From positions 39,242 through 103,241 of the forward strand of contig JBEKCB010000014.1 of assembly GCA_050015075.1 (NCBI GenBank): a stretch of DNA of 64,000 nucleotides. Direction: 5' to 3'. The notes beneath the pieces are model-generated. The model worked only from the letters and a program-made list of their open reading frames with translations, was not told the DNA's origin and ran no database searches. A program made the translations under genes and the position numbers. Numbering within the stretch: the first letter of the stretch is position 1; each line of letters starts with the position of its first letter. Below, piece by piece: positions 26,454 to 61,893 of this stretch. The stretch is from Candidatus Brocadiia bacterium (GTDB lineage Bacteria > Planctomycetota > Brocadiia > CAIUPP01).

Positions 26454-26530
26454 TCGTCCTCGTCCTCGTCGTCGTCCTCGAACGAGTTTTAACGACCGAG
26501 GACGAGGACGACGACGAGGACGAGTACGAT
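26454..26530. repeat. Inverted 6-nt tandem repeats
   Basis: (TCGTCC)n facing (CGAGGA)n between hldE and gmhA. Confidence 0.7.
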
Positions 26531-26538
26531 GGCAAAAC

Positions 26539-34513: not shown

Positions 34514-34589
34514 GGGGGATTAGCTCAGTTGGGAGAGCGCTAGAATGGCATTCTAGAGGCCAGGGGTTCAACTCCCCTATCCTCCACCA
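34514..34589 (+). tRNA. tRNA-Ala (GGC)
   Basis: 76-nt cloverleaf; acceptor GGGGGAT/ATCCTCC with G3:U70, anticodon arm CTAGA-ATGGCAT-TCTAG, T-loop TTCAACT, encoded CCA. Confidence 0.97.
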
Positions 34590-36091
34590 ATCGACGTTCT
34601 GGCAAACTCGGAAGGGCCGGGTTTGCCAGAACTGTTTTCGGGCGTTCCAAAATACAACAGTACCTCCACGCTGTCCGCGTTCACGGTCACCTTCCGCAGC
34701 GCTGACCGCAGCAGCCGGCGCCGGCGCGGATGATCGCTTGACCCCAGGACCTTCTGTATCTCCGCGCCCAGCTCCTCGGCGTTTCGCTCCACGCCGGCTC
34801 GCGCTTCGGCGGCGCGCATCTCCTGGCTGATGACGGCGAGCCGGCGCTCGGCGTCCTCGCGCGTCGCGCGCTTCTTCGCCATCTCGGCCCGCAGGTCGGC
34901 GGCGTCGCCCGGGCCCCACTCTCCGTCAGCGGCCAGGGCCATGAGATTGTTCATGCGCTGCTGCGCGTTCGAGGCGGAGGCCTCGGCACTCCGCTTGTCG
35001 GCCGCCAGGCGTTTGAGGTCGGCAGCGGCCGTCTTCTTCTGAGCGGCCATGGCCGCGTGGAGAGATGACGGATCCGCGAGTCTCTCGGCAACCTTCTCGG
35101 CCATGAAGCGGTCAAGCTCCTGGGCATTGAAGGGCTTGCTCTTGCAGGTCCCGCCGCGGCGGTTGCCGGTGCAACCGTAATAGAAGTACCGCTTGCCCAT
35201 TTTGCCGCGTGCGGTCCACGTCGTCAGGTGCTTGCCGCAGATCCCGCAGAAGATCAGACCGTCGAGGAGGTACTCGTAATGCTCCTTGTGCGTTCGGCGC
35301 TGGCCGCCGGCGAGCGCGGCGTTCCGCTCGAGGATCGGCTGGACTCGGTCGTAGAGGCGCTGATCCACGATCGGCATGTGACTGCCGGCGAGTACTTCTC
35401 CGGCCCACTGCTGCTTACCGAGATAGATGGGGTTGCGGAGAATGCGGATCACAGTCGTGTGGCTGAGCGGGCGGCCTGACTCGCGCAGGTGCCGCACCAG
35501 GTCCGTGGCGCTCTTTCCGGAAGCGTAGAGACGGAAGAGATCGCTGACGATTGCGCGCGTGTCCGGGTTCGGCTCGAGGCCGCCGCCCTGCTTCTGCCGA
35601 TAGCCGAAGGGAATGCGACCGCCGCAGTATCGGCCCTTCCTGGCGGCGGACTGCATTGTCTCGCTCACACGCTCGGCGATCATCTCGCGCTCGAACTGGC
35701 CGAAGGAGGCGAGGAGGTTGCGGAGCAGCCTGCCGGCGGGAGTCGTGGTGTCAATTTCCTGAGTGACGGCGACGACGTCCACGCCGTGCGCTTCGGCTTC
35801 CTGGACGAGCTGGCAGAAGTCGGCGACGGAACGGCTGAGGCGGTCTATTTTCAGGGCGACCAGGACGTCGAACTTCCCGGCGCGGAGGTCGGCGAGCATG
35901 CGCTGGTAGGCGGGGCGCTGCGTGTTCTTGCCGCTCAGTCCCTCGTCACGATAGACGTCCACGACCTGCGCAGCGCGCGCTTTCGCCCATAATTGGCAGC
36001 GCTCTTCCTGTAAGTCGAGCGAGACGCCTTCTTCGGCCTGGCGCGTGGTGCTGACACGAAGATAGAGCGCGGCGCGGAGCGAGCGCCCCAT
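34577..36091 (-). CDS. Large serine recombinase (integrase)
   Basis: YLRVST catalytic Ser motif, DEGLSG, DRLSRS, recombinase domain NPIYLG, Zn ribbon CGICG...YYGC, coiled coil. Confidence 0.93.
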   Translation of the reverse strand: MGRSLRAALYLRVSTTRQAEEGVSLDLQEERCQLWAKARAAQVVDVYRDEGLSGKNTQRPAYQRMLADLRAGKFDVLVALKIDRLSRSVADFCQLVQEAEAHGVDVVAVTQEIDTTTPAGRLLRNLLASFGQFEREMIAERVSETMQSAARKGRYCGGRIPFGYRQKQGGGLEPNPDTRAIVSDLFRLYASGKSATDLVRHLRESGRPLSHTTVIRILRNPIYLGKQQWAGEVLAGSHMPIVDQRLYDRVQPILERNAALAGGQRRTHKEHYEYLLDGLIFCGICGKHLTTWTARGKMGKRYFYYGCTGNRRGGTCKSKPFNAQELDRFMAEKVAERLADPSSLHAAMAAQKKTAAADLKRLAADKRSAEASASNAQQRMNNLMALAADGEWGPGDAADLRAEMAKKRATREDAERRLAVISQEMRAAEARAGVERNAEELGAEIQKVLGSSDHPRRRRLLRSALRKVTVNADSVEVLLYFGTPENSSGKPGPSEFARTSIGGG

Positions 36092-36753
36092 TAGTAACCG
36101 CCTCTGGCGGGAACGCCCGTTTGCCCCGCTTGTATGAGGCCTAATTCGTTGGAACGCCATTCCCGGTAGACCCAAGCAGCGCGCCCGGCGTTTCCGTTTT
36201 TCACTGCCTCCTCCAGAACCATCGCGTAGGTGATGTTTGTCTTTGCTATGGAAGAATCAGGCGTTCTGCCCTTCAGCCATTCATTGAAGCCTGGCTTGGC
36301 GGCGATCTCCCGCCAGTCCGGGACCAGCTCGGTCAATCGCGCCTCGAAGGCCGCCCGCTGACGCGCGATCTCTGCTTCGCGGGCCAAGCGTTCCTTTTCT
36401 GCCTTCTGATCCGCGAGCGCTTTGTCTTCACGGGCCTTCTTCTCCTCCGGCGTGATCCACTCATCGCCCACTTTGATAAGTCCCTTTTGCGCCTGCGCGG
36501 TCTCAAAGGCAGTCTGCTCAGCGCGCGTCCGTAAACCCAAAGCCTTCCGCGTTTCATCCGAGAGGGAAGCCAATGGAATCCAGGCGCCTCCATCTGCACA
36601 ATTCACGAGCGCCTTATCGCCCTTGACCTTCAGGACCGTGACGTTTTTGAAGGCCTGCCCGTCCGTCGTCGTGACAATATCTACCGGATCCCGCGCGAGC
36701 ACGGCAACGGAGAGCGAGAACAGAAGAGCCATCGCAAGAGCGAGACGCCCCAT
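36091..36753 (-). CDS. Secreted hypothetical protein in the lysogenic operon
   Basis: Signal peptide MGRLALAMALLFSLSVAVLA; GGAGG RBS; lies between cI and int. Confidence 0.7.
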   Translation of the reverse strand: MGRLALAMALLFSLSVAVLARDPVDIVTTTDGQAFKNVTVLKVKGDKALVNCADGGAWIPLASLSDETRKALGLRTRAEQTAFETAQAQKGLIKVGDEWITPEEKKAREDKALADQKAEKERLAREAEIARQRAAFEARLTELVPDWREIAAKPGFNEWLKGRTPDSSIAKTNITYAMVLEEAVKNGNAGRAAWVYREWRSNELGLIQAGQTGVPARGGY

Positions 36754-39779: not shown

Positions 39780-40745
39780 ATGAAAGTTCACAAACGCAAG
39801 CCGAAGGCGACCGCGCCCAAGGCTGTTGTGCTTCCGACGAAGCCCGGAATGTACGACGGGATTCCCTTCACCGATTACTGCCTGCGCCTCAAGGGCGCGA
39901 ACTCCACGATGCTGCGGCAGTTCCTCCACGAGACGCCCTCGCGCGTTTACTATCTCATGACGCACCCGGAGAAGGCGGAGGACTCCGTGGCGCTTCGCCT
40001 GGGACACGCCACGCATGCGGCGGTCCTGGAGCCAGAGCGGTTCGAGGAGGAATACGCGAGGATTCCGAAGTTCGACCTGCGGACGAACGAGGGTAAAGCC
40101 GGCGCTTTGAAGTGGGCCGAGGACCATCCGACCCAGGCGCGGCTGCTTCCGGACAAATACGACGAGACGCTGGCTATGCGCGACGCCCTCCTGGCCCACC
40201 CTCTTGCCTCAAAGCTCCTCGGCGCGCCTGGCCGCACCGAAGTCACCGTCCTCTTCAGCATCCCGGTCTGGAAGAACCGGGAGACGGGTGAGATCGCCTG
40301 CCAGCCGGAATCGCCGGGCAAAGGATTCGTCCGCGCCGGCGAGGTCGCGTGCAAGGCCCGGATCGACAAGCTGATCTCGTGGGAGAACTGGTCAACGGTC
40401 CTGGACCTCAAGACGGACCGCGATGCCTCGTTGGCCGGCTTCGGGAAGGCCTGCGAGAAATTCTCCTACCACGCCCAAGCCGCGATGTACCTGGACGCGC
40501 TGGACATTCTCGCGCCGCGCAAGCGCCGGTTCATTCACGTCGTGGTGGACAAGCGACCGCCGCACGACGTGGCGGTGCGCGAGCTGGACGAGCCGGAGCT
40601 GCGCGAGGGCCGGGCGGCGTATCGCTTTGCGCTCGCGACCTACATCCAGTGCAAGAAGTCCGGCGTGTGGCCGGCCTATTTCGACGGCATCGAGCCGCAG
40701 GAAATGCGCCGGAGCGCTTTCCGGTTCACCGATCCGACTCAGTAA
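39780..40745 (+). CDS. RecE/exonuclease VIII-like PD-(D/E)XK nuclease (DUF3799-like)
   Basis: G.A.HAAVLEP..F, CKARID, DLKT, YH.QAAMY. Confidence 0.85.
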   Translation: MKVHKRKPKATAPKAVVLPTKPGMYDGIPFTDYCLRLKGANSTMLRQFLHETPSRVYYLMTHPEKAEDSVALRLGHATHAAVLEPERFEEEYARIPKFDLRTNEGKAGALKWAEDHPTQARLLPDKYDETLAMRDALLAHPLASKLLGAPGRTEVTVLFSIPVWKNRETGEIACQPESPGKGFVRAGEVACKARIDKLISWENWSTVLDLKTDRDASLAGFGKACEKFSYHAQAAMYLDALDILAPRKRRFIHVVVDKRPPHDVAVRELDEPELREGRAAYRFALATYIQCKKSGVWPAYFDGIEPQEMRRSAFRFTDPTQ

Positions 40746-40755
40746 GGAGCCGACG

Positions 40756-42213
40756 ATGGGCCTTGAACGATTCTTCACCGCGAAGCTGACGCCGCTCGGC
40801 AAGATCAAGATCGGCGGCAAGGGCGAGGAAAAGGTCAGCGCCAAGGGCAAGACCTACCGGCAGCCGCTGAAGTACGACTACTTCGTCGTCACGACGATGC
40901 AGAAAGACGCGGCCGGCAATTTCAAGCCGGACGTGAAGCTGATGAAGGAACTGACCGAGGAGTACGGCGACGAGGACGGCAAGCTGCGGCAGATCCCGAT
41001 CCGGCTGCTCTCGAATGATCCGGAGGTCGTCATGCAGACGGCCTTCGTCGCGTACCAGGGCAAGGTCTGCATCGCGCGGAGCGATCGGCAGACGGTGACC
41101 TGGTTCAATGACCTGAAGACCGGCGCGCGCCTGGCCGAGCCGAAGGTCGAGCCGTGGGATGAGAAGCTGCGCGAGTTGAAGTCCCAGGAGGGCGGCGCAT
41201 TCTTCAAGGAGCACAGCGTCTTCAATTGCGTGATCTCGGCGCACGAGGCGAAATGGGGCGGCGTCTATGAGTTCCGCACGACGGGCGAGATCAGCGGGCA
41301 GCAGCTCTACAGCGGGATGCTGGAGACGCTGCGACTGACCTATGGCGTGCTGATCGGGATGCCGCTCTGGATGGTGGTCGAGCCGAAACAGGTGACGCCG
41401 CAGGGCCGCGCGACGACGGTCTACGCGGTGAAGCTCGAGCTGCGCGCGCCCTCGATGGAGGACATCGAACGGATGGCGCTGACGCGGATGCAGTACGCGC
41501 TGGCGCACAAGGACCAGATCCAGATCATCGAGACGAAGTACAAGGCGCTCATGGCGCCTCCAGGAACGGAATCGGCGAAGGACGCCGCCGATATCAATCT
41601 GGAATTCTCGCCGGAGACGGCGGACGCGAAGGTCGAGAAGCCGCCGGAAGGCGAGGACGAATTGCTGAAGCCGGCCGCTCCGCTGGCGCCGATGGATCGC
41701 CCTAAAGAGCGAGAAGCCGCCGGGGGAAGCTCCAAAGAAGGAGCGCGCACTACCCCGGCGGCCCCGGGAGACGATCTGCTCGAGGGCTCGAAGCCGCCGA
41801 AGGGCCCCAAACCGCCGCCGGCGATGATCGGAAAAGATCAGATCGAGGAACTCAAGGCGCTGGTCCCTCAGATCATGACAAAGGCCGACTGGCTGAAAGA
41901 GCTTGCGAAGCGCAAGGTCGAGCGCGTCAGTCAACTGACGGCCGCGGACGCGCTGACGATGATCCTCGACTATCGGAAGCAGCGCGACGAGAAGAACAGG
42001 CGCGGGCCGAAGGAAGAGAAGTTCAGCCGCGATGCCGCGATCGGCGCGGTCAAAGAGGCCCTGGCGGACGATACGATCAGCACCCTCCGATTTGCCCGGG
42101 CCTGCGCTTCGCTGGAGATCAAGTACGACGACAAGCACGCGGACGCCTGGCAGGAAGTTGGGGACGGCAAGTTGAAGGAACTCGTTCACGAGCTGCTGCT
42201 GGATCAGCGGTAG
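40756..42213 (+). CDS. Gp3-like protein (phiC31/phiBT1 recombination directionality factor family), probable annealing/recombination partner
   Basis: N-terminal GKIKIG.KG...K.YRQP.K.DYF.V and GGVYEFRTTG resemble the Gp3-like family; follows the exonuclease; long Pro/Lys-rich tail. Confidence 0.6.
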   Translation: MGLERFFTAKLTPLGKIKIGGKGEEKVSAKGKTYRQPLKYDYFVVTTMQKDAAGNFKPDVKLMKELTEEYGDEDGKLRQIPIRLLSNDPEVVMQTAFVAYQGKVCIARSDRQTVTWFNDLKTGARLAEPKVEPWDEKLRELKSQEGGAFFKEHSVFNCVISAHEAKWGGVYEFRTTGEISGQQLYSGMLETLRLTYGVLIGMPLWMVVEPKQVTPQGRATTVYAVKLELRAPSMEDIERMALTRMQYALAHKDQIQIIETKYKALMAPPGTESAKDAADINLEFSPETADAKVEKPPEGEDELLKPAAPLAPMDRPKEREAAGGSSKEGARTTPAAPGDDLLEGSKPPKGPKPPPAMIGKDQIEELKALVPQIMTKADWLKELAKRKVERVSQLTAADALTMILDYRKQRDEKNRRGPKEEKFSRDAAIGAVKEALADDTISTLRFARACASLEIKYDDKHADAWQEVGDGKLKELVHELLLDQR

Positions 42214-43113: not shown

Positions 43114-43129
43114 GATCGTGAAGAAGTAA
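42950..43129 (+). CDS. 59-aa hypothetical protein, absent from the ORF track
   Basis: GTG..TAA, MTTTYDFADERAGLEYLHNVRSRG...; overlaps the tail of 42694-43113. Confidence 0.4.
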   Translation: MTTTYDFADERAGLEYLHNVRSRGLAIPLEELLRAGAWEFSSSSDQGDKATTRYEIVKK

Positions 43130-43175
43130 ACGCTCCGGCGCGTGCCGGACGGGTTTCTTTGGAAAGGAGGCGTGT

Positions 43176-43664
43176 ATGGCGAAGGCGAAGAAGCCGGCGA
43201 AGAAAGCGCCGGGCGGTCCGCCGAAGCTGGCGGCCGAGATCAAGGTGGAGGCCCGCGATTTCACGCATGCGGCCGCGAGCCTCGGATGCAAGTGCGCCCT
43301 GCTCAAGGGCTGCACGAAGGCAATCCTCAAGCGCATCGAGAAGGTGAAGGAGGTTCTCGATGCGAACATCGCCAAGGGCGGACTGGAGTCTCCGCGCGCC
43401 GGCATGCTGTTCGGGACCCTGGAGCAGTCGCGCCAGGAATCCCAGAAGGCGGAACTCGAGCGGATTGACACGGCGGTCAGCCTCGCTAACTTCGTGCTCG
43501 AGAGCGTCGGCGCGGCGGACCTGAAGGCGTTCCGCGCGGGCTGCCGCAAGGTCTCCGAGGGCGTTGTGAAGAAGGCGGATGGCCGCGAGCCGGCGAAGGC
43601 GGCTGAGCCGGATGGCAAGAGCCAGGCGGCCGGCGACAGCCAGAGAGCGCAGGCGGCAGGATAG
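43176..43664 (+). CDS. Basic hypothetical phage protein
   Basis: AAGGAGG RBS; Lys/Ala-rich N-terminus. Confidence 0.7.
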   Translation: MAKAKKPAKKAPGGPPKLAAEIKVEARDFTHAAASLGCKCALLKGCTKAILKRIEKVKEVLDANIAKGGLESPRAGMLFGTLEQSRQESQKAELERIDTAVSLANFVLESVGAADLKAFRAGCRKVSEGVVKKADGREPAKAAEPDGKSQAAGDSQRAQAAG

Positions 43665-44536
43665 TGAGCATGGGCCTGAAAGGATTCGACGGAGTGAATG
43701 AGGTCGGATGCTGCGCGCCGGGGACGGCCGCTCGGCCCCGTCAACAATGCGGCCACAAGACTAAGTGCTGCCGAATATCGGCAAGCGGCCTAAACGGTCG
43801 CCCTGAACCCGGCGAGGAAGCCCGCGTAGCCGGCAGTAGGGACCAGACGCAGGCGACGGCCCGGAGAGACGGGCTGGCTTGCCGGTTGAAAGCTGCTCCG
43901 AAGGAATTCCGGCTGGCCGGGCGTCGTGGCCAGCCACGCGCAAAAGGGCTGAAATCCCCTGGAGCGAAACCGGCTGGTGGAGGCAAGGCTTGCCCGACGA
44001 GCCTCAATCATCGGGACACGCGCGTAGACGCACCGGCTGAAGCACGACCGGACGGGAGTTCGATTCTCCCCAGGTCCACTCATCTTAGCATCCTGGCCTT
44101 TGACCTGGCCTCTGTCTGCGGATGGGCCTCTCTCAAGGAAGGCCGTCTCAGTTCGGGCGCCTGGGAGAATCCGGCGCGGTACGTGGACTCTCCCGGGCGC
44201 TTCTTTACCTGTTTCAGGACGTGGCTCGCGGACATGAAGCAGTGGCACGAACCGCAGCTCGTGGCCTACGAGTTCACCCCGCGCGGCGCGAGCACGAATG
44301 CGATGCTGATCCATTTCGGGCTTGTGACCAGGCTGGAGGAGTGGGCGTACCGAATGGAGGCGCGCACGGCGTTCATCTATCCGAGCCAACTGAAGAAGCT
44401 GGTGACCGGACGCGGCGACGCGGAGAAGGAAGAGGTGCGCGATGTCATGCGGAAGCGATGGAAGATTCCGAAGCTGACGAGCCTGGACGAGAGTGACGCG
44501 GTTGCGGTCTTGACCTGGGCGCTGAGGAAAGCATGA
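43664..44536 (+). CDS. RuvC-like Holliday junction resolvase with a 140-codon in-frame insertion containing the tmRNA
   Basis: ILAFDL (D), AYE (E), LKK.VTG.G.A.K, DESDA motifs from about 44090; GTG start overlaps the upstream TAG; no canonical start codon after the tmRNA. Confidence 0.75.
   Translation: MSMGLKGFDGVNEVGCCAPGTAARPRQQCGHKTKCCRISASGLNGRPEPGEEARVAGSRDQTQATARRDGLACRLKAAPKEFRLAGRRGQPRAKGLKSPGAKPAGGGKACPTSLNHRDTRVDAPAEARPDGSSILPRSTHLSILAFDLASVCGWASLKEGRLSSGAWENPARYVDSPGRFFTCFRTWLADMKQWHEPQLVAYEFTPRGASTNAMLIHFGLVTRLEEWAYRMEARTAFIYPSQLKKLVTGRGDAEKEEVRDVMRKRWKIPKLTSLDESDAVAVLTWALRKA
43672..44078 (+). ncRNA. ssrA: Prophage-encoded tmRNA, tag (A)AAEYRQAA
   Basis: 5' GGGCCTG..GGATTCGAC pairs with 3' CAGGTCC-A (G3:U); T arm GGGAG-TTCGATT-CTCCC; pseudoknot PK1 CGGGG/CCCCG plus GGCCGC/GCGGCC; resume context TAAGT-GCT at 43767; stop TAA 43791-43793; CCA not encoded. 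Confidence 0.93.
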
Positions 44537-46805: not shown

Positions 46806-46817
46806 GAGATTGGCGAA

Positions 46818-48545: not shown

Positions 48546-48546
48546 C

Positions 48547-52158: not shown

Positions 52159-52769
52159 GGCGACGCTGCAAAAAGCGACAATCTGTAGGTACTCCTGGGC
52201 GAGACTTCGGGCTTGAAGGTGTGCGTGGGCGGCGGCAAGATTCACAGACTTTGTTTGCCACAAAACGGTCGCTGAACGTACAGAAAATCGCGGCGCTCCT
52301 GGTGAATGGAAAAACGTCGTCAGCGATCATGTCGTGGGCCGTCAGTGACCGCGGCCTCGGTCTGTCGGAAGCGCAGGCCGGTCGTCTCATGCGTCAGGCG
52401 AAGAAACAGATTTCGCGCGACTCAAAATGGAGCCAGGAGGAAGAGCTCGGTCTGGCAGTCAGTCGTCTCCGCATGCTCTACGCGAAGGCGTTGTCAGCCG
52501 GTGACACCGCTGGCGCTTTTTCGATTCAGCGAGAGCTGAATTCACTGACGGGTCTTCGCGGGCGCGATGGCGATGGCAGCGACGGAAAACCGCCGCCCCA
52601 CGACGATGGCGCAAGCCGAGAGTTGGCCGCGGCTCGAGCGCATCTTGCCGCCCTGAACCTCGGAGGCCCGGACGTTCCGGTGAGTGAGTTGGCGCGGTTG
52701 GCCGTCCAACGGATCGTGGAGTTGATGACCAGTGCGAATGAAGAAGGCAAGAAGTCCGGCAAACTATGA
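52155..52769 (+). CDS. Putative small terminase subunit; true start probably about 52270-52310
   Basis: Directly upstream of the large terminase; helical HTH-like content. Confidence 0.5.
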   Translation: MRRRCKKRQSVGTPGRDFGLEGVRGRRQDSQTLFATKRSLNVQKIAALLVNGKTSSAIMSWAVSDRGLGLSEAQAGRLMRQAKKQISRDSKWSQEEELGLAVSRLRMLYAKALSAGDTAGAFSIQRELNSLTGLRGRDGDGSDGKPPPHDDGASRELAAARAHLAALNLGGPDVPVSELARLAVQRIVELMTSANEEGKKSGKL

Positions 52770-54924
52770 GCGTCACAGGGCGGACGCCCGGGCGCGCATG
52801 GCCGCCAAGTCGGAGGCGGGCCGCGATATCGGCGAGATGCCGGCGGTCGTAAATCCGATGCGCAAAGCGCGCTGCGGCGCTTTGCTCCAGGCGTTCATCG
52901 AGAGCTACCTCCTGAAGATGTTCACGGTCCGCGGAGACCACTGGCCCTGGTCGGCAACACACCTGGAGGTCATGCGTCGCATCGAGGCCGTCGTGCGCTA
53001 CGGCGATATGTTCGGCGTGGCCATGCCGCGCGGCGGCGGCAAGACCTCTCTCATCAAGGCGGGAACGTTGTGGGCGAGCCTCTTCGGCTTCAGGCGATGG
53101 GTCTGCGTTCTCGCCGCCACGGCGCCGAAGTCGGGGGCGATCATTCAGGATTTGCAGACCATCGTGGAAACCAATCCACTGCTCGCGGCGGATTTCCCGG
53201 AGGTCTGTTATCCCGTTCGCAAGCTGGAACGCATCGCTGGCCGGCAGCGCGGGCAGACATTCAGGCGGGAGCCGACGCGCATGGCCTGGAGCGTGAATGA
53301 AATCGTCCTCCCGAACATTCCCGGAAGCCGGTGCGCCGGCAGCATGGTCACGGCGACCGGCCTCGAGGGTTCCGGCATCCGCGGCCAGGTGCGCGTGCTG
53401 GCCGATGGCACGCAGCTCCGGCCCGACCTGGTGTTCATAGACGATCCGCAGACGGACGAGAGCGCGCATTCGGCGTTTCAGACCGACGATCGGCTGAAGT
53501 TGCTGGGCGGCGCGGTCCTCGAAATGGGGCCGCCTGGCGTCCCGCTCGCCGCTCTGATGGCCGTGACGGTGATCGAGAACGGCGATGTCGGCGATACGGT
53601 CCTGAAGGACCCGCGATGGAACGGAATCCGTTCGCCGATGCTCGTCAAGTTTCCCGTCCACATGAGCGCGACGCCCGCCGACATTCCTCACGCGGACCAC
53701 TGGGACCGCTATGCCGACCTGCTGCGAAGCGGGCGAACTGATGACGCGACGGAGTTCTATGCGGCGCATCGGTGCCTTCCGGAGTGCGAGGGGATCCTCG
53801 ACCGGCCGCGCCCTTGCCTGCCCTGCCCGATTCGCGCCGACTGCATGGACGCGGACGCCATGGTCTCCTGGCAGCAGCGGAAATATCCCGCCGACCTTTC
53901 GCCGGTTCAGCACGCCATGGACCGGCACATTCGCAACCCGATCCTCTTCGCCGCCGAGATGCAGCAACAGCCGATCTCGGCACAAATGGCCGGCGCAAGG
54001 ATCACGCCGGCGCAGGTGATCCAGCGGGTCAGCGGCCTTCCGATGTGCCACGTGCCTGCGGATGCGACGGTCATCACCGCCGGAGTCGACGTCCACGACG
54101 AGCTTCTCTACTGGGTCGTGTGCGCCTGGGAAGACGACTTCACCGGCCAGGTCATTCAGTACGGCACGCTCCCCGAGCAGCCGGTGCGCTGGTTCCTGCA
54201 GGCCAGTCCGCCACGCCCGCTCTCGCGCGAGTTCCCCGGCCAGGACAAGGACGGCGTGATTCAGTCCGGCCTCGAGCGCCTGTGCGGCGTCATGCTCAAG
54301 CATGAGTTCGAGAAACACGCCGGCGGATCCGTGGCTTCGATGTCCATCGAGCAGATGCTCGTGGACAGCGGCTACAAACCGACGCTCGTCTACAACGTGC
54401 GCCGGAAGCTCGCCAGCCCGATCATGCAGGCCTCGAAGGGCATGGCCCTGCGCGCAACGAACAAGCCGATCGCCTCCTTCCAGCGTAAGCGCGGATGGAA
54501 GTTCGGCGACGACTGGTACGTCCCCAGCGTCCGCGGCACGCGCGAGTACCCGCACGTGTGCATTGACACCAACGCCTGGAAGAGCTTCGTCCATCGCGCA
54601 TTGTCCGTCGCTCCGGGCACGCGCGGCGCCTTGACGCTCTACGGGACGCCGGTGACTGCCGGCGACCATGAAGCGTTCGCGGAACAGGTCGCCGCCTCCG
54701 AGTACTTCACCGAGGTCTTCGCTCACGGCCGGGTCGTCAACGAGTACAAGCAGATGCCGCATCGGCCCGACAACCACTGGTGGGACTGCCTGGTCCTGTG
54801 CGCGGTCGGCGCCTCGATGCGCGGCTGCAAGCCGCCGGTCCAGGCGAAAGCGGCTCAGCGGTCATCCGGCGGTCCGGCGAAGCGCCAGGTGAAGAGCCTT
54901 GCAGAAATGGCAGGAGCAACATGA
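52732..54924 (+). CDS. Large terminase subunit (GpA-like)
   Basis: AMPRGGGKT Walker A, FIDDPQT Walker B, GVDVH, VDSGY, NHWWDC nuclease motifs. Confidence 0.9.
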   Translation: MRMKKARSPANYERHRADARARMAAKSEAGRDIGEMPAVVNPMRKARCGALLQAFIESYLLKMFTVRGDHWPWSATHLEVMRRIEAVVRYGDMFGVAMPRGGGKTSLIKAGTLWASLFGFRRWVCVLAATAPKSGAIIQDLQTIVETNPLLAADFPEVCYPVRKLERIAGRQRGQTFRREPTRMAWSVNEIVLPNIPGSRCAGSMVTATGLEGSGIRGQVRVLADGTQLRPDLVFIDDPQTDESAHSAFQTDDRLKLLGGAVLEMGPPGVPLAALMAVTVIENGDVGDTVLKDPRWNGIRSPMLVKFPVHMSATPADIPHADHWDRYADLLRSGRTDDATEFYAAHRCLPECEGILDRPRPCLPCPIRADCMDADAMVSWQQRKYPADLSPVQHAMDRHIRNPILFAAEMQQQPISAQMAGARITPAQVIQRVSGLPMCHVPADATVITAGVDVHDELLYWVVCAWEDDFTGQVIQYGTLPEQPVRWFLQASPPRPLSREFPGQDKDGVIQSGLERLCGVMLKHEFEKHAGGSVASMSIEQMLVDSGYKPTLVYNVRRKLASPIMQASKGMALRATNKPIASFQRKRGWKFGDDWYVPSVRGTREYPHVCIDTNAWKSFVHRALSVAPGTRGALTLYGTPVTAGDHEAFAEQVAASEYFTEVFAHGRVVNEYKQMPHRPDNHWWDCLVLCAVGASMRGCKPPVQAKAAQRSSGGPAKRQVKSLAEMAGAT

Positions 54925-55130
54925 GCAAGACCGCCAAGGAGCCGGCCAGGCGCGTCCGCCTCTCGCTCGAGGAAATGGCGCGCGGAGACGGTCCTCCGGT
55001 GGGCGTCCGCTGCCCGAAGTGCTGGTGCATGCGCTCGCACGTGGACGCGACGCGCGACGGGCCGGGACAGAGTGGGCGATGGCGGGTGTGCGACAACTGC
55101 GGAACCGGCTGGAGAACGGACGAGAAATAG
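54921..55130 (+). CDS. Small Zn-ribbon protein (Ogr/NrdR-like)
   Basis: CPKC...R.RVCDNCG..W.T.E; AGGAG RBS. Confidence 0.7.
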   Translation: MSKTAKEPARRVRLSLEEMARGDGPPVGVRCPKCWCMRSHVDATRDGPGQSGRWRVCDNCGTGWRTDEK

Positions 55131-55144
55131 ATCCCCGGGCAACT

Positions 55145-55342
55145 GTGAACGGACACCAGAGAGCGAAGAAGCGACGCGAGGAACGCCAGGCCGTCCGTGA
55201 GGCGGAACGGGCCACGTGGCGATGTCGCTGTGGGGCGGCCAGGCCAAAACATGTCTCGACATACGGTCGAATCGAGTACGTAATCTGTAAATTTTGCGCC
55301 CGTCATTCCAAGATAATCTATTCATTTCGCCTCGACGAGTGA
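55145..55342 (+). CDS. Second small Zn-ribbon protein
   Basis: CRCG...T.G.I.Y..CKFC. Confidence 0.55.
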   Translation: MNGHQRAKKRREERQAVREAERATWRCRCGAARPKHVSTYGRIEYVICKFCARHSKIIYSFRLDE

Positions 55343-55352
55343 AGAACCTTCC

Positions 55353-55381
55353 TTGCATCTGATCATGTCCTGAACGATAAT
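55353..55381 (+). promoter_or_regulatory. Putative late promoter
   Basis: TTGCAT-17 nt-GATAAT upstream of the head genes. Confidence 0.4.
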
Positions 55382-55438
55382 CCCTGCATCGAAGCAGAAG
55401 CCTGCTCCTGGCAAAGGGCGCGCGCATGGGAAGGTGAA

Positions 55439-55678
55439 ATGGGCGACCTCGTCAAAGCTCTGAAGCACGCCGCGGAGAAACCCGAGAGCGTCACCGCGGG
55501 CGACGTGACGGTGCGGCGCCGGCCGCTGACCGAGCAGATCGAAGCGACGAAGTTCCTCATGGCCACCCGCGCGCGATCCCGCGGCGGTATGGCCGGCGTT
55601 TCCATCACCAAGCTGAAACCGCACGGCGCCATTCTTCCCGCCGGTCCCGACTTGCGTCCTTGGGAATGGGGCGGATGA
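55439..55678 (+). CDS. gpW-like head-to-tail joining protein
   Basis: Small ORF between terminase and portal; P.SVT.G.V.V..RPL.EQIEA. Confidence 0.6.
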   Translation: MGDLVKALKHAAEKPESVTAGDVTVRRRPLTEQIEATKFLMATRARSRGGMAGVSITKLKPHGAILPAGPDLRPWEWGG

Positions 55679-57471
55679 TGTTCGGATTCTCGACTCTTCG
55701 TCGCTGGTGGAACGGCCGCAAGGCGGCGCGAGTGCGTCGCCGCGCGGCGAAGACCCTCGCCGAGATGCTCGACCGGCGGCTCAATCAGCGGCGTGCCGAA
55801 TGGGACCGCGAGGACGCCGAGCTGCGCTCGGTAATGGCCATGGGGGTCGGCGCCGCCAACTGGGGCGAGATGATGCGGCAGCTCGGAGTCCGCACGAAAC
55901 CCGCCCTGGACGAAATGGCCGGCGCTCCAGCTCCGCGAATTTCCGCCCGCTTCGATTCCGCGATCACGACCGACGACGACCGCGCGCACTGGGCGATGGC
56001 CGATGGCCTGGCCGCCGACGCCGCCGCCAACCCCATGATCCGCTACACACTCCGCAACCGGGGCCGGTACGAAGATGCGAATAACTGCTACTGCAAGGGC
56101 GTCGGCGAAACCATCGCCAATGATTTTGTCGGGACCGGGCCGCGCCTGCACATAGACGACGAACGGCTGACCGAGGACGAACGCGAGGACATCGAGGCCA
56201 AGTTCGCCGCGTGGGCGCAGGCCATTGACCTTCCGGGCAAACTTCGCACCATGCGAAAGGCACGCCGGACTGACGGGGAAACCTTCGCCTGCAAGATCAC
56301 AAACCCAAAACTGAAACATCCGGTGAAGCTCGACCTTCGCGTGATCGAGGCCGACCAGGTCCGCTTCGTGGACATCTCGCTACTTCTCTCGCCGTCCGTG
56401 GACGGGATCCGGTTCGATGACTACGGCAACCCGGTTTCCTACCACATCCTGCGCATCCATCCCGGCTACTGGTCCTACGCGACCGGCTACGTCGGCATGC
56501 CGTGGGAATACGACGTATGGGACGCCAGCCTCGTCATCCATTGGTTCCGGCAGGACCGGCCCGGGCAGCATCGCGGGCTTCCCGAATTCCTGCCGGCGCT
56601 GCCGCTCTACGCCACGCTGCGGCGCTACACCCAGGCCACCCTCGATGCCGCTGAAACAGCGGCAGACTATGCGGTGCTTTTGGAAACGCAGGCCGGCGCG
56701 ATGTTCGTGGACGAGGACGGGAATACGAGCGAGGGCGTCACCGAGGCCAAGGCGTTTTCCGCCGTGCAGATGCATCGGCGGATGATGGCCGCGCTGCCGG
56801 CCGGGTATAGCGCCAAGCAAATGCGGCCCGAACAGCCGACGCAGGAGTACAGCGGATTCAAGCGGGAAGTTGCCTCTGAGATCGGGCGATGCGAGGGCGT
56901 TCCCCGCAACGTCGTGCTCGCGGATTCGTCTGACTCCAGTTTCGCCAGTGGGCAGCTCGATCATAAAATCTACTTCCGCCCGCGGGAGATCGAGCGCGCG
57001 GAAGCCAACGGGCTGATCCTCGACAACCTATTCGGGGATTTTATCGCCGAGGGCGTGCGGCTCCGCGAGGGCCACGGCGACTACGGCAAGCCCTATCTGC
57101 CGCAGATCCTTCGCACGCTCGGGACCAGCGTTGAACATTCCTGGTACTGGGACAGCAACGAGATGGGAGATCCGTTCAAGCTTTCGGCCGCGAAATCTAC
57201 CGCCATGAAAGATGGCCTGACGACGATCCCGGCCGAGTACGAGGCCAAGGGCCGGAACTGGAACCGCGCGTTCGTCGCGCAGGCCCGCGCGCTCGGCTGC
57301 ACGGTCGAAGAACTCAAGACGATGGTCCGCAACAGCATCTTCGCCACGCGCGGCACGGATCCGGTAGACGCCGGCGCGGACGAAGGCGGCGAGGCCGGCA
57401 AAACGCCCGCGCGCAAACCGGCAGTCGCCGTCAAGCGTCCGGCGCAAGGCGCATTGCAGAGGGCGAATTAG
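55675..57471 (+). CDS. Phage portal protein, lambda family
   Basis: LRNR.RYE..NN, VGTGP, DGE, IEAD, DGI.FD..GNP..YH, RPGQ.RG.P. Confidence 0.92.
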   Translation: MMFGFSTLRRWWNGRKAARVRRRAAKTLAEMLDRRLNQRRAEWDREDAELRSVMAMGVGAANWGEMMRQLGVRTKPALDEMAGAPAPRISARFDSAITTDDDRAHWAMADGLAADAAANPMIRYTLRNRGRYEDANNCYCKGVGETIANDFVGTGPRLHIDDERLTEDEREDIEAKFAAWAQAIDLPGKLRTMRKARRTDGETFACKITNPKLKHPVKLDLRVIEADQVRFVDISLLLSPSVDGIRFDDYGNPVSYHILRIHPGYWSYATGYVGMPWEYDVWDASLVIHWFRQDRPGQHRGLPEFLPALPLYATLRRYTQATLDAAETAADYAVLLETQAGAMFVDEDGNTSEGVTEAKAFSAVQMHRRMMAALPAGYSAKQMRPEQPTQEYSGFKREVASEIGRCEGVPRNVVLADSSDSSFASGQLDHKIYFRPREIERAEANGLILDNLFGDFIAEGVRLREGHGDYGKPYLPQILRTLGTSVEHSWYWDSNEMGDPFKLSAAKSTAMKDGLTTIPAEYEAKGRNWNRAFVAQARALGCTVEELKTMVRNSIFATRGTDPVDAGADEGGEAGKTPARKPAVAVKRPAQGALQRAN

Positions 57472-57549
57472 TGAGGTAGACCTGAAAGACAATTTGCGCG
57501 TGTCCCGTGGATGCGGCCGCTGAAGCGGGACGCCAAAAAGCGGACTGAC

Positions 57550-57593
57550 AAAGGCTGAACCTGTGCACAGCGGGTTCGGCCTTTTTCTTTTTC
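57550..57593 (+). terminator. Intrinsic terminator between portal and capsid genes
   Basis: AAAGGCTGAACC...GGTTCGGCCTTT stem followed by TTCTTTTT. Confidence 0.65.
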
Positions 57594-57627
57594 CGGCGCG
57601 CAACTCAGGTCATTCCGGGAGACGGTA

Positions 57628-60243
57628 ATGAAGAAGAAGCCTTCCGAGGAAGCGCTGGCCGCCGCGTTCATGTGCACGCTCGCGTCGCGGAAGAGGGAAA
57701 GGACCCGCGAGCTTCCGGGATCCGGAACGATGCGCCGCGCGGATCGGGAACGCGCGCAGGCGCAGCGCCAGTTCGCATGGCTCCTCGGCCGCGGAACCCA
57801 GGCTCCGCAATCCGCGCCGCCGATCAGCGCCGCCTCTGGGGAAGGCGAGCAACCGATCTCGGCGACCTTCGACGCCGCATTCTCGATCACCGCGCAGGCC
57901 GCCGATGCGCCGCCGGCGACCGATCCGAATCCCTCCGCGAAGCTCGACACGCCCGACGCGGCCGCCGGCGACAAGACCGCCGTCCCGCCCGGCGCGAACA
58001 AGAACTCCACCGACGTGATGAAGCCGGACAAGGACGGGGCCCCGCCGAAACCGCGCTTCACGATGACAGCCTACAACGGCGGACCCATGAAGCTGAACGG
58101 CTACCAGTTTCCCGTCGTCGTGGACGGTGCCGGACTCAAGGCGGCCGGCGCGCGGCTGCCGGTCTACATCGGCCACAACAAGCCGTGGGACGACGTGGAC
58201 ACGCAGATGGAGCAGCTCTTCGGACAGACCGACGATTTCTCGGTGAACGCCGAGACGGGCGAAATCGCCTGCTGCGGGCTGGTCACCGGCGAGTCGGCTC
58301 TTTGCCAGCAGGCGAAGACGCACGCGAGGAACGGCTTCAAGTTCCAGGCCTCCATCAACGCGCAGCCTACGCTCCTCGAGTTCGTTCAGCCGGGACAAAA
58401 AGCAAAAGTCAATGGCCGGACGGTGTCGGGTCCGGTCGTCGTCGCGCGTGCGGCGACGTGTGATCACATCGCCCTCGTGCCGCTCGGCGCGGACACCCGC
58501 ACGACGGCCAAAATTGCGGCTGAAGCCGCGAAAGGACAAGCCATGGAATTCAGCGCCTGGCTCACCGCGACGTATTCGCTGGACGCCGGCAAGCTCACGC
58601 CCGAACAGAAGACGAAGTTCGAGGCCGAGTTCGGCCGGATCGCCGCCGCGCATGCGGGATCGGCTCCCGCCAAGCCGGCCGAAGAGCCGAAGCCGGCCGC
58701 TCCGGACTTCACCGTGCTCCGCGGCGAGACGGCCAAGGAAGAGTTGCGGATCGCCGCCGTTCGCGCCGCGGCCAAGGATCGCCCGGAGATCGCCGCACAG
58801 GCCATCACCGAGGGTTGGGACGAGGCGAGGACGAAGGATGCCGTCGAGGTCGCCACGCTGAGGGCCTCGCGCGCAGCGTCGCAGACCGAAGGCGCTCCGG
58901 CGGTCATTTCCGGCGACATGCCGAACGACGGCCTCCAGCTCCAGGCGGTTCCGCCGAGCCGCGGCGGCCGGCACATCGCGGCAACGGGTCGCATCAGCAA
59001 CGACCTTGCGGCCGTCATCGAGGCGTGCGGGCTGATCTCCGCTGGCTACCCCGCCGAGCGCCTGGCCAAGAACCCGGCCTACGGCCAGCGCGCGGTGGAA
59101 ATGGCCGACCGGACCATGGCGCGGTTCGGCTCCGGACTCGGCCCGATGGGACTCATGCGGCTCGTGGCGAGCTTCGCCGGCATCAGCCTGCCGCACAACA
59201 ACGATGAGGCGTACAAGGCCATCGTCGCGGAGTTCAGCACCCTGAGCCTGCCGACGATCCTCAGCAACCTGATGAACAAGTTCTTATTGGACTCGTACAA
59301 CGCCGTGGACCCGGACGCGATTGATGTTCCCGGCATGGCCACGACTGCCTGGCAGAAGTTCACCAAACGCGGGCCGGTGCAGGACTTCAAGCCGCATTAC
59401 CGCGTTCGTCTGACCGGCTCTCTGGAGTTCACGGACCTCGGCCCGGCCGGCGAGATTCAGGCCGGAAAGATCAGCGAGCAGTCCTATCAGATCCAGGCGA
59501 GCACGAAGGCCATCATGTTCGCCATCACGCGCAAGGACATCGTGAACGACGACCTCTCGGCCATGTCCACGCTGCCGACGCTCTTCGGCCGCGGCGCCGG
59601 CGTCCGCGTCGCGAAGTTCATCTACGGCCTGCTCATTGCCGCGCTCCAGAGCGACCGCGCGACGGCCTTCTTCACGTCCAGCGCCATCACCACGGCGGGC
59701 AACCTGATGCAGCCGAACCTGCTGACCAGCGCGGCGCTGTCCCTGACGACGCTGGAAGCCGCCGAGGCCGCGATGCTGGCGCAGACCGATCCTTACGGCC
59801 TGCCCTCCGGCGTCCAGCCGGAAATCCTGCTGGTCCCGCCCGGCCTCATCAACCTGGCCCGCCAGCTCTGGCAGTCCACGGACCTGATCCCGAGCCTCTC
59901 CACGGGCGGCAACGCCAGGGGCGTTCCGGTCAAGAACACGCTGGCCGGTCGCTTCCGCCCGGTGTGCTCGCAATGGCTCTCGAGCCTGACCGCCGCGCAG
60001 ATCAACGAGGTGATCAAGGGGCTGAGCACGGCCAATGCCGGCAGCAACACCACCTGGTATCTCTGCGCCGGACCGCAGCAGCCTGCCTATCCGATCGAGT
60101 GCGGGTTCCTCAACGGGCAGGAGATGCCCATTGTCGAGCGCGACGAGATGCAGTTCGACCGGTTGGGAATTGCGTTCAGGGGTTTCATTGACTTCGGCGC
60201 GAACCTCGCCGAGCCGCGTTCCATCGTGAAGAACACGGCATAA
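57628..60243 (+). CDS. Prohead protease / major capsid protein fusion (Mu gpT-like capsid domain)
   Basis: AYNGG, PV..GH, FQASI, IALVPLGAD protease; LSNLMNK.LL..Y, VQDFK, ITR.DIVNDDL, P.ILLVPP, FLNGQE.P, DFG capsid motifs. Confidence 0.88.
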   Translation: MKKKPSEEALAAAFMCTLASRKRERTRELPGSGTMRRADRERAQAQRQFAWLLGRGTQAPQSAPPISAASGEGEQPISATFDAAFSITAQAADAPPATDPNPSAKLDTPDAAAGDKTAVPPGANKNSTDVMKPDKDGAPPKPRFTMTAYNGGPMKLNGYQFPVVVDGAGLKAAGARLPVYIGHNKPWDDVDTQMEQLFGQTDDFSVNAETGEIACCGLVTGESALCQQAKTHARNGFKFQASINAQPTLLEFVQPGQKAKVNGRTVSGPVVVARAATCDHIALVPLGADTRTTAKIAAEAAKGQAMEFSAWLTATYSLDAGKLTPEQKTKFEAEFGRIAAAHAGSAPAKPAEEPKPAAPDFTVLRGETAKEELRIAAVRAAAKDRPEIAAQAITEGWDEARTKDAVEVATLRASRAASQTEGAPAVISGDMPNDGLQLQAVPPSRGGRHIAATGRISNDLAAVIEACGLISAGYPAERLAKNPAYGQRAVEMADRTMARFGSGLGPMGLMRLVASFAGISLPHNNDEAYKAIVAEFSTLSLPTILSNLMNKFLLDSYNAVDPDAIDVPGMATTAWQKFTKRGPVQDFKPHYRVRLTGSLEFTDLGPAGEIQAGKISEQSYQIQASTKAIMFAITRKDIVNDDLSAMSTLPTLFGRGAGVRVAKFIYGLLIAALQSDRATAFFTSSAITTAGNLMQPNLLTSAALSLTTLEAAEAAMLAQTDPYGLPSGVQPEILLVPPGLINLARQLWQSTDLIPSLSTGGNARGVPVKNTLAGRFRPVCSQWLSSLTAAQINEVIKGLSTANAGSNTTWYLCAGPQQPAYPIECGFLNGQEMPIVERDEMQFDRLGIAFRGFIDFGANLAEPRSIVKNTA

Positions 60244-60255
60244 ACTTTTCTGCCA

Positions 60256-60287
60256 CCGGATCCCGCTGCTCTTGCAGCGGGATCCGG
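60256..60287. other. Perfect 14-bp hairpin after the capsid gene; a second hairpin lies at 60353-60372
   Basis: CCGGATCCCGCTGC-TCTT-GCAGCGGGATCCGG with no U tract. Confidence 0.6.
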
Positions 60288-60407
60288 CGCGCACGTTCGC
60301 ATGGAGGTTGAGTTCACGACTGAGTTTGTGCCGCGCCGGTGGGGCGAACGATTTCCCGCCTTGTGGCGGGAACAGCACCCAGGCGGCTGGATTGAAAGGA
60401 GCAGGAC

Positions 60408-61457
60408 ATGGACTACGGACCGACTGCCGCAGTTGCGGCGCCGCAACCGTTATGGGCTCGGTACATTCACGGCGGACACACCGTTGATTTCATTCCCGAT
60501 GCCGGCACGAACTACTGCGGCAACGGCGTCGGAAACGGCGTCCCGTTCGGCGGCGTCGTCATCCTGGGCGGCTTGGCCGCGATTGCGACCGTGCCGCTTC
60601 CCGCCGGCGTCCGTGGCTCGCTGGTCATCGAGGGCAGCTTCGATTTCGTGAAGGCCGCGAGCGATGGCGGCATGGCCGCCGGATCGCTGGCGTACTGGGA
60701 CAACACGAATTTCGTCGCCACCGGCACCGCGAGCGGCAACACCTATCTCGGCAAGGTCGAAACCGCCGCATTGACGTCGGATACGAGCGTGCGCGTGCAG
60801 GTGGAGGCCATCGCCAACGCCTCCGGCAGCGTGGGATTCGGCGTGCTGCCGGTCTCGGCCGTCAACGCCGCCGGAACCAATTACGGCACGGGCGGCGGCC
60901 TCGCCGCCGGGGTCAACGTCGTCAGCCAAGCGGACGGCACAAAGGTCGTCTCGTTGCCCGCCACGCCGACCGCCGGAACTCTGGTCGTCATCAAGAACAC
61001 GACCGCTTATCCGCTGCCGGTCTACCCGGATGGTGCCGCCACGATTGACGCGGTCGCTTCGCACGGTGCGTTTATCGTTCCGCCGCTCAGCACAGCCATC
61101 CTTATTGCCGAAAGCGCCACGCAGTGGGACAGCGTTTGTTCCGGCCTGATGGCTGTTTCGGCTGTCGCGGCGGCGGGCAGCACTGTCGCCGACGCTGGCA
61201 AGCTGTACGCTGGCTTCAACGTCGTCAGCGCCGCGGACGGCACGAAGGGCGTGGTTCTGCCGACAGCGCCGCAGCCGGGCACCATGGTCATCGTCAAGAG
61301 CACCGTGAGCAATGCGCTGCCGATCTACCCCGATGCGGCGGCCTCGATCAACGCCATCGGCTCCCACGGCGCGTTCAGCACCGCCACGGTCGCCCCGGTC
61401 ATCCTGATCGCCACGAGCGCGACGCAGTGGTACACCGTTCCGCTGGTGGCCTCGTAA
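60408..61457 (+). CDS. DUF2190-like capsid cement/decoration protein with a duplicated C-terminal domain
   Basis: G.V.FG.VV..G..GSL.IEG.FDF.K, YWD motif; two repeats 101 codons apart. Confidence 0.7.
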   Translation: MDYGPTAAVAAPQPLWARYIHGGHTVDFIPDAGTNYCGNGVGNGVPFGGVVILGGLAAIATVPLPAGVRGSLVIEGSFDFVKAASDGGMAAGSLAYWDNTNFVATGTASGNTYLGKVETAALTSDTSVRVQVEAIANASGSVGFGVLPVSAVNAAGTNYGTGGGLAAGVNVVSQADGTKVVSLPATPTAGTLVVIKNTTAYPLPVYPDGAATIDAVASHGAFIVPPLSTAILIAESATQWDSVCSGLMAVSAVAAAGSTVADAGKLYAGFNVVSAADGTKGVVLPTAPQPGTMVIVKSTVSNALPIYPDAAASINAIGSHGAFSTATVAPVILIATSATQWYTVPLVAS

Positions 61458-61527
61458 GCCAGCGCAGCTTTTCCCCGGCCGGGCGGTCCGCCATAAACGG
61501 ATCGCCCGGCTTGGTAAGGAAGTCGGC

Positions 61528-61893
61528 ATGTCGCTCGAGGAGATTCTCAGGGAAGCCGCCGAGGAAATCGCCGATCCCGAATCCGGACTCGGCGAGCCAG
61601 GCGGATTCCTGCTGCCGGACGGCACGAAGCGATCATTCAATCTCGCCCTCGTTCGGCATGACGAGATGCGCTCCGAAGAGCCCGGACAGCTTCAGCCGCT
61701 CTTCGTCGCGCATTTCCCCGAGGGCTGCGAGACGACGGCGACCTTTGCGGAATTCGACGGCGGCACGTGGAAGCTGATTTTCGCCGACGTCCCAGGCGGC
61801 ACGCTGCTCGCCCATGACATCGGGCACTGGAACAAGTCTCGGCCCGGCATGTTCATCCTGGAGATCTTCGGTGCTGGATATGCTCTCCCTTGA
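61528..61893 (+). CDS. Putative head-tail connector protein
   Basis: Synteny in the lambda-like morphogenesis cluster; AAGGA RBS. Confidence 0.5.
   Translation: MSLEEILREAAEEIADPESGLGEPGGFLLPDGTKRSFNLALVRHDEMRSEEPGQLQPLFVAHFPEGCETTATFAEFDGGTWKLIFADVPGGTLLAHDIGHWNKSRPGMFILEIFGAGYALP

Follow-up and report, generated by a model that had tools for sequence, protein, structure and literature searches.

A temperate phage of a Brocadiia bacterium carries a complete one-piece tmRNA gene with a polar tag end

Introduction

Genes for transfer-messenger RNA (tmRNA) in phages and prophages are already in print (PMC9004378, PMC9934374, PMC4131195). They are reported in 402 out of 18,146 phage genomes (PMC9004378), a published list of phage tmRNAs includes those of mycobacteriophages Bxz1, Cali and Catera, Bacillus phage G and Gordonia phages (PMC4131195), and huge phages are described as encoding tmRNA together with SmpB (PMC7162821). 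Here, we analyzed such a gene on a stretch of 64,000 nt (hereafter the window) from a Candidatus Brocadiia bacterium, which forms the last 64 kb of the 103-kb contig JBEKCB010000014.1. An earlier note, made from the sequence alone, had claimed a complete, prophage-encoded tmRNA at positions 43672-44078 of this window. The phages named above are mostly large and lytic. Phage tmRNAs have been catalogued for two decades and, to our knowledge, none of them has a demonstrated role.

The gene in the window resembles the one-piece tmRNAs of Bxz1, Cali, Catera, Bacillus phage G and the Gordonia phages in being a full tmRNA with a tag reading frame in a tailed phage, but the similarity in sequence is confined to the T arm and the acceptor end. 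A blastn search against 50,697 phage records returned hits in these two parts only, with the best hit covering 19% of the query and 0 out of 10 records covering 80% or more. The prophage prophiT49-2 of Mycobacterium abscessus (cluster MabI) is likewise described as a serine-integrase prophage encoding a tmRNA (PMC9934374), and the statement of the earlier note that phage tmRNAs are mostly reported from large lytic phages was thus too strong. By its description, prophiT49-2 measures 80 kb and carries 24 tRNAs, whereas ARAGORN called no tRNA gene of the phage's own in the part of the present prophage that is seen. The marine phage Melnitz is similar in that the phylogeny of its tmRNA is reported to point to a lineage other than that of its host (PMC9004378). 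According to the same source, the Melnitz tmRNA is a two-piece, circularly permuted molecule located behind a glutamine riboswitch, the phage measures 141.5 kb with no integrase detected by the authors, and the tmRNA was proposed to maintain the hijacked translation machinery or to tag proteins. The gene described here is a well-preserved new example of phage-borne tmRNA and not a new type of system. We found no paper on this prophage tmRNA; relatives may be present in the supplementary phage tables of PMC9004378 and among the 97,179 sequences of the PMC11915505 database.

In our view, the presence of this gene is best explained by canonical trans-translation with host factors, which would provide additional ribosome rescue while the phage develops; we put the probability of this explanation somewhat above even.

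Identity and structure of the tmRNA gene

The window contains a complete, structurally intact one-piece tmRNA gene, borne by a phage, at 43672-44078 on the forward strand (Table 1), as the earlier note had proposed. The Rfam family RF00023 matches positions 43672-44081 (+) over its full model (model positions 1-374) with 66.8 bits and an E-value of 7.4e-24, the gathering score being 47 bits. ARAGORN independently called a tmRNA with the tag AAEYRQAA* in the same reading frame, 43767-43793. This program placed the 5' end at 43517 (a 563-nt call), where a perfect stem can be formed with a similar heptamer, but with A3:U in place of G3:U and with no adjoining D-loop motif. We rejected this end, since both the Rfam alignment and an alignment with 20 chromosomal tmRNAs give 43672. 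The miscall stems from the segment 43517-43540, located within the upstream open reading frame (ORF), which resembles the 5' end of this tmRNA in having a similar heptamer with GAAGG behind it; this likeness may be due to chance or represent the trace of an insertion event.

Three other identities of the locus were ruled out. It is not an ssrA fragment produced by att duplication upon the integration of an island or prophage, since it is of full length with the 5' half and the tag frame, and the integrase is located 7.5 kb away at a tRNA-Ala gene. Nor is it a mini-tmRNA consisting of the tRNA-like domain (TLD) only (DS6A type), given that the tag frame, pseudoknot PK1 and helix 5 are all there. 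A two-piece (permuted) tmRNA is excluded by the standard order across the entire model.

All structural details listed in the earlier note (G3:U acceptor stem, GGAUUCGAC motif, T arm, PK1, helix 2, GCT at 43767 and the lack of CCA) are present in the sequence. The acceptor stem (GGGCCUG/CAGGUCC) combines G3:U with a discriminator A at 44078, corresponding to alanine identity, and CUC follows the discriminator in place of an encoded CCA. The D-loop-like GGAUUCGAC motif at 43682-43690 and a T-arm loop of the GUUCGAUUC type, which together form the SmpB-binding elbow, occupy columns that are invariant or nearly so in 21 aligned sequences. Helix 2, leading from the tRNA-like domain to PK1, has 21 out of 24 canonical pairs (P2a 7/10, P2c 9/9, P2d 5/5), with the segment 43711/43714-43718 pairing with 44020-44024/44027. 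PK1 lies just upstream of the resume codon and is built from stem a (43719-43723 with 43736-43740, 5/5) and stem b (43726-43731 with 43749-43754, 6/6). The alignment with the 20 chromosomal tmRNAs of the host's class brings the resume and stop codons of the phage copy into register with theirs and, further downstream, does the same for the PK2 hairpin and its GCAGGC partner (columns 200-252).

When the canonical helices are written out (P1, P2, PK1, helix 5 and T arm; 53 pairs), 50 pairs are canonical: next to those of helix 2, these are 7/7 in P1, 11/11 in PK1, 6/6 in helix 5 and 5/5 in the T arm. In the 21-sequence alignment, the structure pairs 81.3% of the cells, compared to 40.6-50.2% after shifting the partners by 1-3 columns, and none of 500 shuffles matched the observed pairing or covariation. 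The minimum-free-energy fold of the phage copy recovers the acceptor stem and the T arm, and none of 100 shuffles folded as well.

The proteolysis tag

The tag has eight codons (AAEYRQAA), begins at the alanine resume codon and ends with AA. For comparison, we extracted 42 chromosomal tmRNAs from the class of the host. The earlier description of a "short non-canonical tag" holds for its end and not for its length. Nine-codon tags are encoded by 34 of the 42 chromosomal tmRNAs, which places the phage tag one codon under the local norm and makes it not strikingly short. In contrast, all 42 class tags end with LAA or MAA, and the phage tag has a polar R-Q before the final AA, which is its odd part. 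An R at position -4 also occurs in one chromosomal tag of the class (AEPVQYRMAA); the tag of the host genus is AETHYSLAA. In print, the most frequent tag length is given as 10 residues, and tags down to two residues exist (PMC11915505).

The phage copy and the host ssrA have the same 11 nt around the resume codon, a context that within the class sample is common only to the genus and the family of the host. This identical context points in the opposite direction to the foreign origin discussed below and may reflect adaptation or chance.

As an alternative explanation, which we regard as unlikely, an active phage tmRNA may alter the fate of rescued proteins or compete with the host tmRNA for the single SmpB of the host. 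The polar ...RQAA end would then slow the degradation of tagged proteins, or direct them to different proteases, relative to the ...SLAA end of the host, shifting the load of ClpXP or sparing the tagged proteins. The uniform class tags (42/42 LAA or MAA) set against QAA with a preceding R fit this explanation, as do the single smpB and the tag of the only other second tmRNA in the class, that of genome G022, which also has an R near its end (...IRAAA). The phage tag does keep the final AA, however, which in E. coli is the chief determinant for ClpX, and the chromosomal tag AEPVQYRMAA shows that R at -4 is found outside phages too. Competition of this kind has a parallel in a TLD-only phage tmRNA reported to inhibit the host tmRNA, perhaps by titrating SmpB (PMC4131195).

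Among 132 genomes of the class, only the present genome and G022 have two tmRNA matches over the cut-off. The second tmRNA of G022 (contig C1, 10001-10330, 110 bits) likewise lacks an encoded CCA and has an R near the end of its tag (ANDNAIRAAA), but it is unrelated in sequence to the phage copy, with a very long branch and an acceptor stem unlike that of the class. It adjoins a ParB-like gene among ORFs without known family and is possibly located on another mobile element.

Origin of the phage copy

Sequence comparison indicates that the phage tmRNA is not derived from the ssrA gene of the present host, and that the closest relatives in the sample are chromosomal tmRNAs from a different family of the same phylum. 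A displaced host gene, as considered in the earlier note, does not agree with the data: the phage copy and the host ssrA are identical at 199 out of 359 positions (alignment A2), and a tree in which the phage copy forms a clade with the host family is rejected (log-likelihood 19.6 lower, approximately unbiased (AU) test p 0.0145). A DNA search of 401 genomes, which sample the phylum only, gave 77-85% identity to the last 66-82 nt of the gene in six genomes of families f82 and f110. All six matches are the chromosomal tmRNAs of those genomes (138-174 bits). Maximum-likelihood analysis of 27 tmRNAs placed the phage copy as the sister of f82 (support 96/98). This placement is to be read with the long phage branch in mind (0.8 changes per column versus a median of 0.12, with a best identity to any sampled tmRNA of 57% over the kept columns), as well as a skewed base composition and the fact that the f82 and f110 rows were added because they match the phage copy. 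Mis-binning as the cause of the f82 affinity was rejected, since the host flank of the prophage is 88-95% identical to the prophage-free genome G001 of the same genus.

The four f82 chromosomal ssrA genes (G435, G449, G486 and G252; another class than the host) have the same acceptor stem as the phage copy except for pair 6, an identical T arm and P2d, and 77-85% identity over the last 66-71 nt, and three of the four have no encoded CCA. They differ in their tags (nine codons ending with LAA or VAA, compared to eight codons and QAA in the phage), in overall identity (at most 57% over the kept columns) and in the PK2-PK4 region, which is longer in the phage. Two of the f82 tmRNAs have U for C after the discriminator A, and all f82 acceptor stems differ from GGGGGCG, which is invariant in the 20 host-class tmRNAs of alignment A3. 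The host ssrA is likewise a one-piece gene with a short AA-ending tag and the same resume context, but its acceptor stem differs from that of the phage copy at three pairs and CCA is encoded in the host copy only.

These differences also bear on the suggestion of the earlier note that the phage tmRNA acts against tRNA- or tmRNA-cleaving defence, i.e., as a spare part that replaces or decoys a host tmRNA or tRNA cleaved by a defence nuclease. A sequence-specific nuclease could miss the phage copy, whose acceptor stem and other sequence differ from the host tmRNA. Nothing more specific in our analysis supports such a role (no tmRNA-cleaving defence system was looked for), and the acceptor-stem and T-arm differences are largely common to the f82 lineage and thus reflect ancestry and not escape. 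We therefore regard it as most improbable.

Maintenance of the fold

In eight pairs of the phage copy, both bases depart from pairs that show no or almost no variation in the 20 class tmRNAs, and pairing is kept in every case. The reading of all eight as compensation on the phage branch was partly withdrawn: P1 pairs 4 and 5 and the T-arm pair reflect ancestry because they are common to f82. When the comparison is made with f82 itself, a script found four pairs changed on both sides yet still pairing (P2a 20-378, P2c 34-364, P2c 38-361 and PK1a 50-67). A fifth double change, at P1 pair 6, was read by eye as the P1 columns of f82 are offset by one in the alignment. Stem b of PK1 has a shifted register and still forms a 6-bp helix. 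That 50 out of 53 pairs are kept at a best identity of 57% speaks in favor of selection acting on the fold.

The gene is identical in an IMG/VR assembly of the same element, in which three differences over 10.6 kb all fall outside the gene, at 42851-42862. Searches for related copies recovered this element only. A DNA search of 61 relatives gave hits of chance size only; loci retrieved through the downstream RuvC-like gene and the upstream ORF belonged to the same element (IMG/VR and metagenome contigs, 99.95-100% identical); and a degenerate pattern made from the resume context and tag codons matched this element alone among viral contigs and had no match among genome contigs. Two homologs of the RuvC-like protein, with 65-67% identity, are encoded on contigs of 1.4 and 0.5 kb that are too short for context.

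The gene could alternatively be a passenger, an ssrA taken up from a former host by illegitimate recombination that brings no benefit and is functional or slowly decaying; we give this a low probability. Its foreign affinity, long branch and low model score would suit such a history, as would the seemingly clipped start of the RuvC-like gene (as after a crude insertion) and the fact that no related phage with a tmRNA was found. It is opposed by the pairs that remain intact despite the long branch, with both-side changes that keep pairing, and by the intact resume context, tag frame and stop codon. The identical copy in the second assembly and the presence of the sequence in RNA libraries likewise speak against it.

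Presence in metagenomes and RNA libraries

A 1.5-kb stretch around the gene is found in 20 listed DNA runs, which are peat and soil metagenomes, and partly in four metatranscriptome runs. In the latter, originating from three studies, five contigs of 157-212 nt match inside the tmRNA at 43691-44035 with zero differences, and one further RNA-library contig lies at 44462-44600. No RNA-library contig of the four runs falls on 43100-43660 or 44120-44460, a missing cover that is not proof of silent flanks or of the RNA ends. A 33-nt RNA-library piece with three differences (X24) was assigned to another organism. The recurrence of the tmRNA sequence in RNA libraries of independent studies, as a stable RNA would give, hints at expression.

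Prophage setting and neighboring genes

The tmRNA gene belongs to an integrated temperate tailed phage, 9 kb inward from its left junction, and has phage genes on the same strand on both sides, in agreement with the earlier claim that it is prophage-encoded. The part of the window left of 34.6 kb has the gene content of an ordinary bacterial chromosome, among others a lipid A acyltransferase and TPR/glycosyltransferase proteins. The prophage is inserted at the 3' end of the tRNA-Ala(GGC) gene, exactly where the homology to G001 ends (34589). In G001, the DNA after tRNA-Ala matches contig C4 of genome G000, where the neighbors are not clearly phage genes. The assembled part of the prophage amounts to about 29 kb and the remainder is off the contig; the window stops at the contig end, the right end was not found, and no att-like repeat turned up. 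Within the host flank, at 26450-26535, there is an element of ~80 nt that recurs dozens of times (74-100% identity, both strands) in the contigs of G001 and looks like a dispersed short repeat.

The integrase is followed by a DUF2130 protein, a PD-(D/E)XK nuclease and a protein with a Gp3-like directionality factor domain (Pfam). Then come two ORFs without known family, the tmRNA gene, a RuvC-like resolvase, Dam-type and C5 DNA methyltransferases and a HerA-like ATPase. The early region at 44533-51254 is dense in genes of the DNA-modification and repair type, encoding the Dam-type N6-adenine methyltransferase, the C5-cytosine methyltransferase and the HerA-like ATPase along with a weak AlkZ-like hit, a radical-SAM-like protein and DUF5131. 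Judged by its PHROG hits, the head module of the phage, which follows and reaches to the contig end, looks complete.

The possibility that the ORF preceding the tmRNA gene is a hidden SmpB was rejected, on the weak evidence that there is no Pfam or PHROG hit, nothing usable in Atlas and no sign of an SmpB-like fold; its single-sequence structure model is all-helical and of low confidence (pLDDT 49). Homologs of the RuvC-like protein begin with MNVLAFDL; at the corresponding position, the gene in the prophage lacks a canonical start codon and reads CTT-AGC-ATC (alignment with P0001 and P0003). Its frame contains no ATG, GTG or TTG between 43886 and 44183 and offers only ATT at 44063, ATC at 44090 and CTG at 44093. 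The form predicted by gene callers has 100 amino acids and lacks the N-terminal aspartate of AFDL. The start of this gene may have been clipped by the capture of the tmRNA.

Table 1. Features of the prophage and its tmRNA gene, with positions in the window.
Feature	Position	Strand	Basis and remarks
Host tRNA-Ala(GGC), left prophage junction	34514..34589	+	ARAGORN; G001 homology stops at 3' end
Large serine recombinase (integrase)	34577..36175	-	PF00239, PF07508, PF13408
Gp3-like recombination directionality factor domain protein	40423..42213	+	PF18897
Upstream ORF, 162 amino acids, no known family	43176..43664	+	No Pfam/PHROG hit; stop codon 7 nt before tmRNA
One-piece tmRNA gene	43672..44078	+	407 nt to discriminator A, then CUC; RF00023, ARAGORN, 50/53 pairs
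Acceptor stem 5' strand, including G3 of G3:U	43672..43678	+	7/7 pairs with 44071-44077
D-loop-like GGAUUCGAC motif and helix 2 5' strands (P2a, P2c, P2d)	43679..43718	+	Rfam alignment, high posterior probability
Pseudoknot PK1	43719..43754	+	11/11 pairs, two crossing stems; aligned to PK1 of the model
Tag reading frame	43767..43793	+	Resume GCU, AAEYRQAA, stop UAA 43791-43793; U at -5, A at -4
Helix 5 hairpin, stop codon in loop	43785..43801	+	6/6 pairs
PK2-PK4 region (pseudoknots putative)	43802..44019	+	Longer than usual, partly alignable
Helix 2 3' strands, including conserved GUAGA	44020..44050	+	Rfam alignment, pair count
T arm 44054-44070, acceptor 3' strand 44071-44077, discriminator A 44078	44054..44078	+	Pair count (T arm 5/5, acceptor 7/7)
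RuvC-like resolvase gene	44090..44536	+	phrog_159, PF02075; starts about 5-12 nt past tmRNA
Head module: large terminase, portal, protease-capsid fusion, decoration, neck protein	52732..62452	+	PHROG hits

A scan for promoters and terminators found nothing near the tmRNA gene above the shuffled expectation. Given this result and the short spacers, 7 nt between the preceding stop codon and the tmRNA and a few nt between the tmRNA and the RuvC-like gene, the gene is presumably co-transcribed with its neighbors in a rightward early operon. The tight packing on one strand (7 nt on one side and about 5-12 nt on the other) and the negative scan would also suit a processing signal, in which the tRNA-like domain is a cut site for RNase P and 3' processing that separates the messages of the upstream ORF and the RuvC-like gene, tagging being secondary. 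We consider this very unlikely, since such a signal needs the tRNA-like domain only, whereas PK1, the resume context, an eight-codon frame ending with AA and the stop codon in a hairpin loop have all been kept.

Proposed function and host factors

Under canonical trans-translation, host tRNA-processing enzymes would cut the tmRNA from the operon transcript, a host nucleotidyltransferase would add CCA, and the alanyl-tRNA synthetase of the host would charge it with alanine by means of G3:U and the discriminator A. Bound by the sole SmpB of the host, the phage tmRNA would enter ribosomes stalled on broken mRNAs, add (A)AAEYRQAA and release these ribosomes, providing extra rescue capacity for the phage during its development. 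The terminal AA should still route the tagged proteins to ClpXP. A similar role has been suggested for other phage tmRNAs (PMC9004378, PMC7162821, PMC12656738).

The genome of the host encodes its own ssrA (contig C6, 167 bits, tag AETHYSLAA, CCA encoded), clpX and one gene of the PolyA_pol/nucleotidyltransferase family, which includes CCA-adding enzymes. The single smpB match in the genome is located on contig C5. As the earlier note had observed, there is none in the window, and the phage tmRNA would have to use this one SmpB of the host, as proposed there. The missing CCA, which the same note had recorded, is not unusual: CCA is also not encoded in 12 out of 46 host tRNA calls and in three of the four nearest chromosomal tmRNAs. 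Because these tRNA calls lack it, CCA addition must work in the host, and the missing CCA of the tmRNA is therefore no obstacle. Likewise, CCA is not always encoded in tmRNA genes in general (PMC11915505, legend of Figure 1). One of the host tRNAs in question, a tRNA-Met (contig C18:24645-24718), has the trailer TCATTA, compared to TCATCT in the phage tmRNA; this likeness is probably due to chance.

Several points weigh against this explanation, beginning with the gene itself. Its 66.8 bits are far under the scores of the full-length chromosomal tmRNAs of the host's class (123-194 bits), the z-score of its minimum-free-energy fold is just -1.97, and the alignment of the PK2-PK4 region to the Rfam model is poor, with low posterior probability and an insert of 58 nt, so that the pseudoknots in that region are putative. 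No sister copy was found in any collection searched, and there is thus no covariation among close relatives. As to activity, contigs from RNA libraries cannot prove transcription, RNA ends or level, since DNA may occur in such libraries. The phage tag has Q at a position occupied by L or M in all 42 class tags, so that efficient proteolysis is not assured. Finally, we know of no phage tmRNA whose benefit has been demonstrated experimentally.

Significance

The gene is the second example, after the published Melnitz case, of a phage tmRNA that records a former host, and is otherwise an ordinary addition to a known class. Its particular points are a small temperate phage, a foreign lineage, a polar tag end and hints of natural expression, the RNA possibly being made in nature by an uncultured peat bacterium.

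The ClpXP load often controls phage repressors and replication proteins. A bolder reading, to which we assign little probability, is that a horizontally acquired tmRNA, expressed in the lysogen and sharing the sole SmpB, reprogrammes the fate of proteins from stalled ribosomes and the load of ClpXP through a weak or rerouted ...RQAA degron. If this were true, the gene would be a phage-controlled switch on the protein quality control of the host and not a mere spare part.

The locus offers a clean test case in either event, as a small temperate phage carries a single extra translation-related gene and the host partners are identifiable (one smpB, clpX and one gene of the CCA-enzyme family). Since the phage and host tags differ at positions relevant to proteolysis, the peptides tagged by each would be distinguishable by mass spectrometry.

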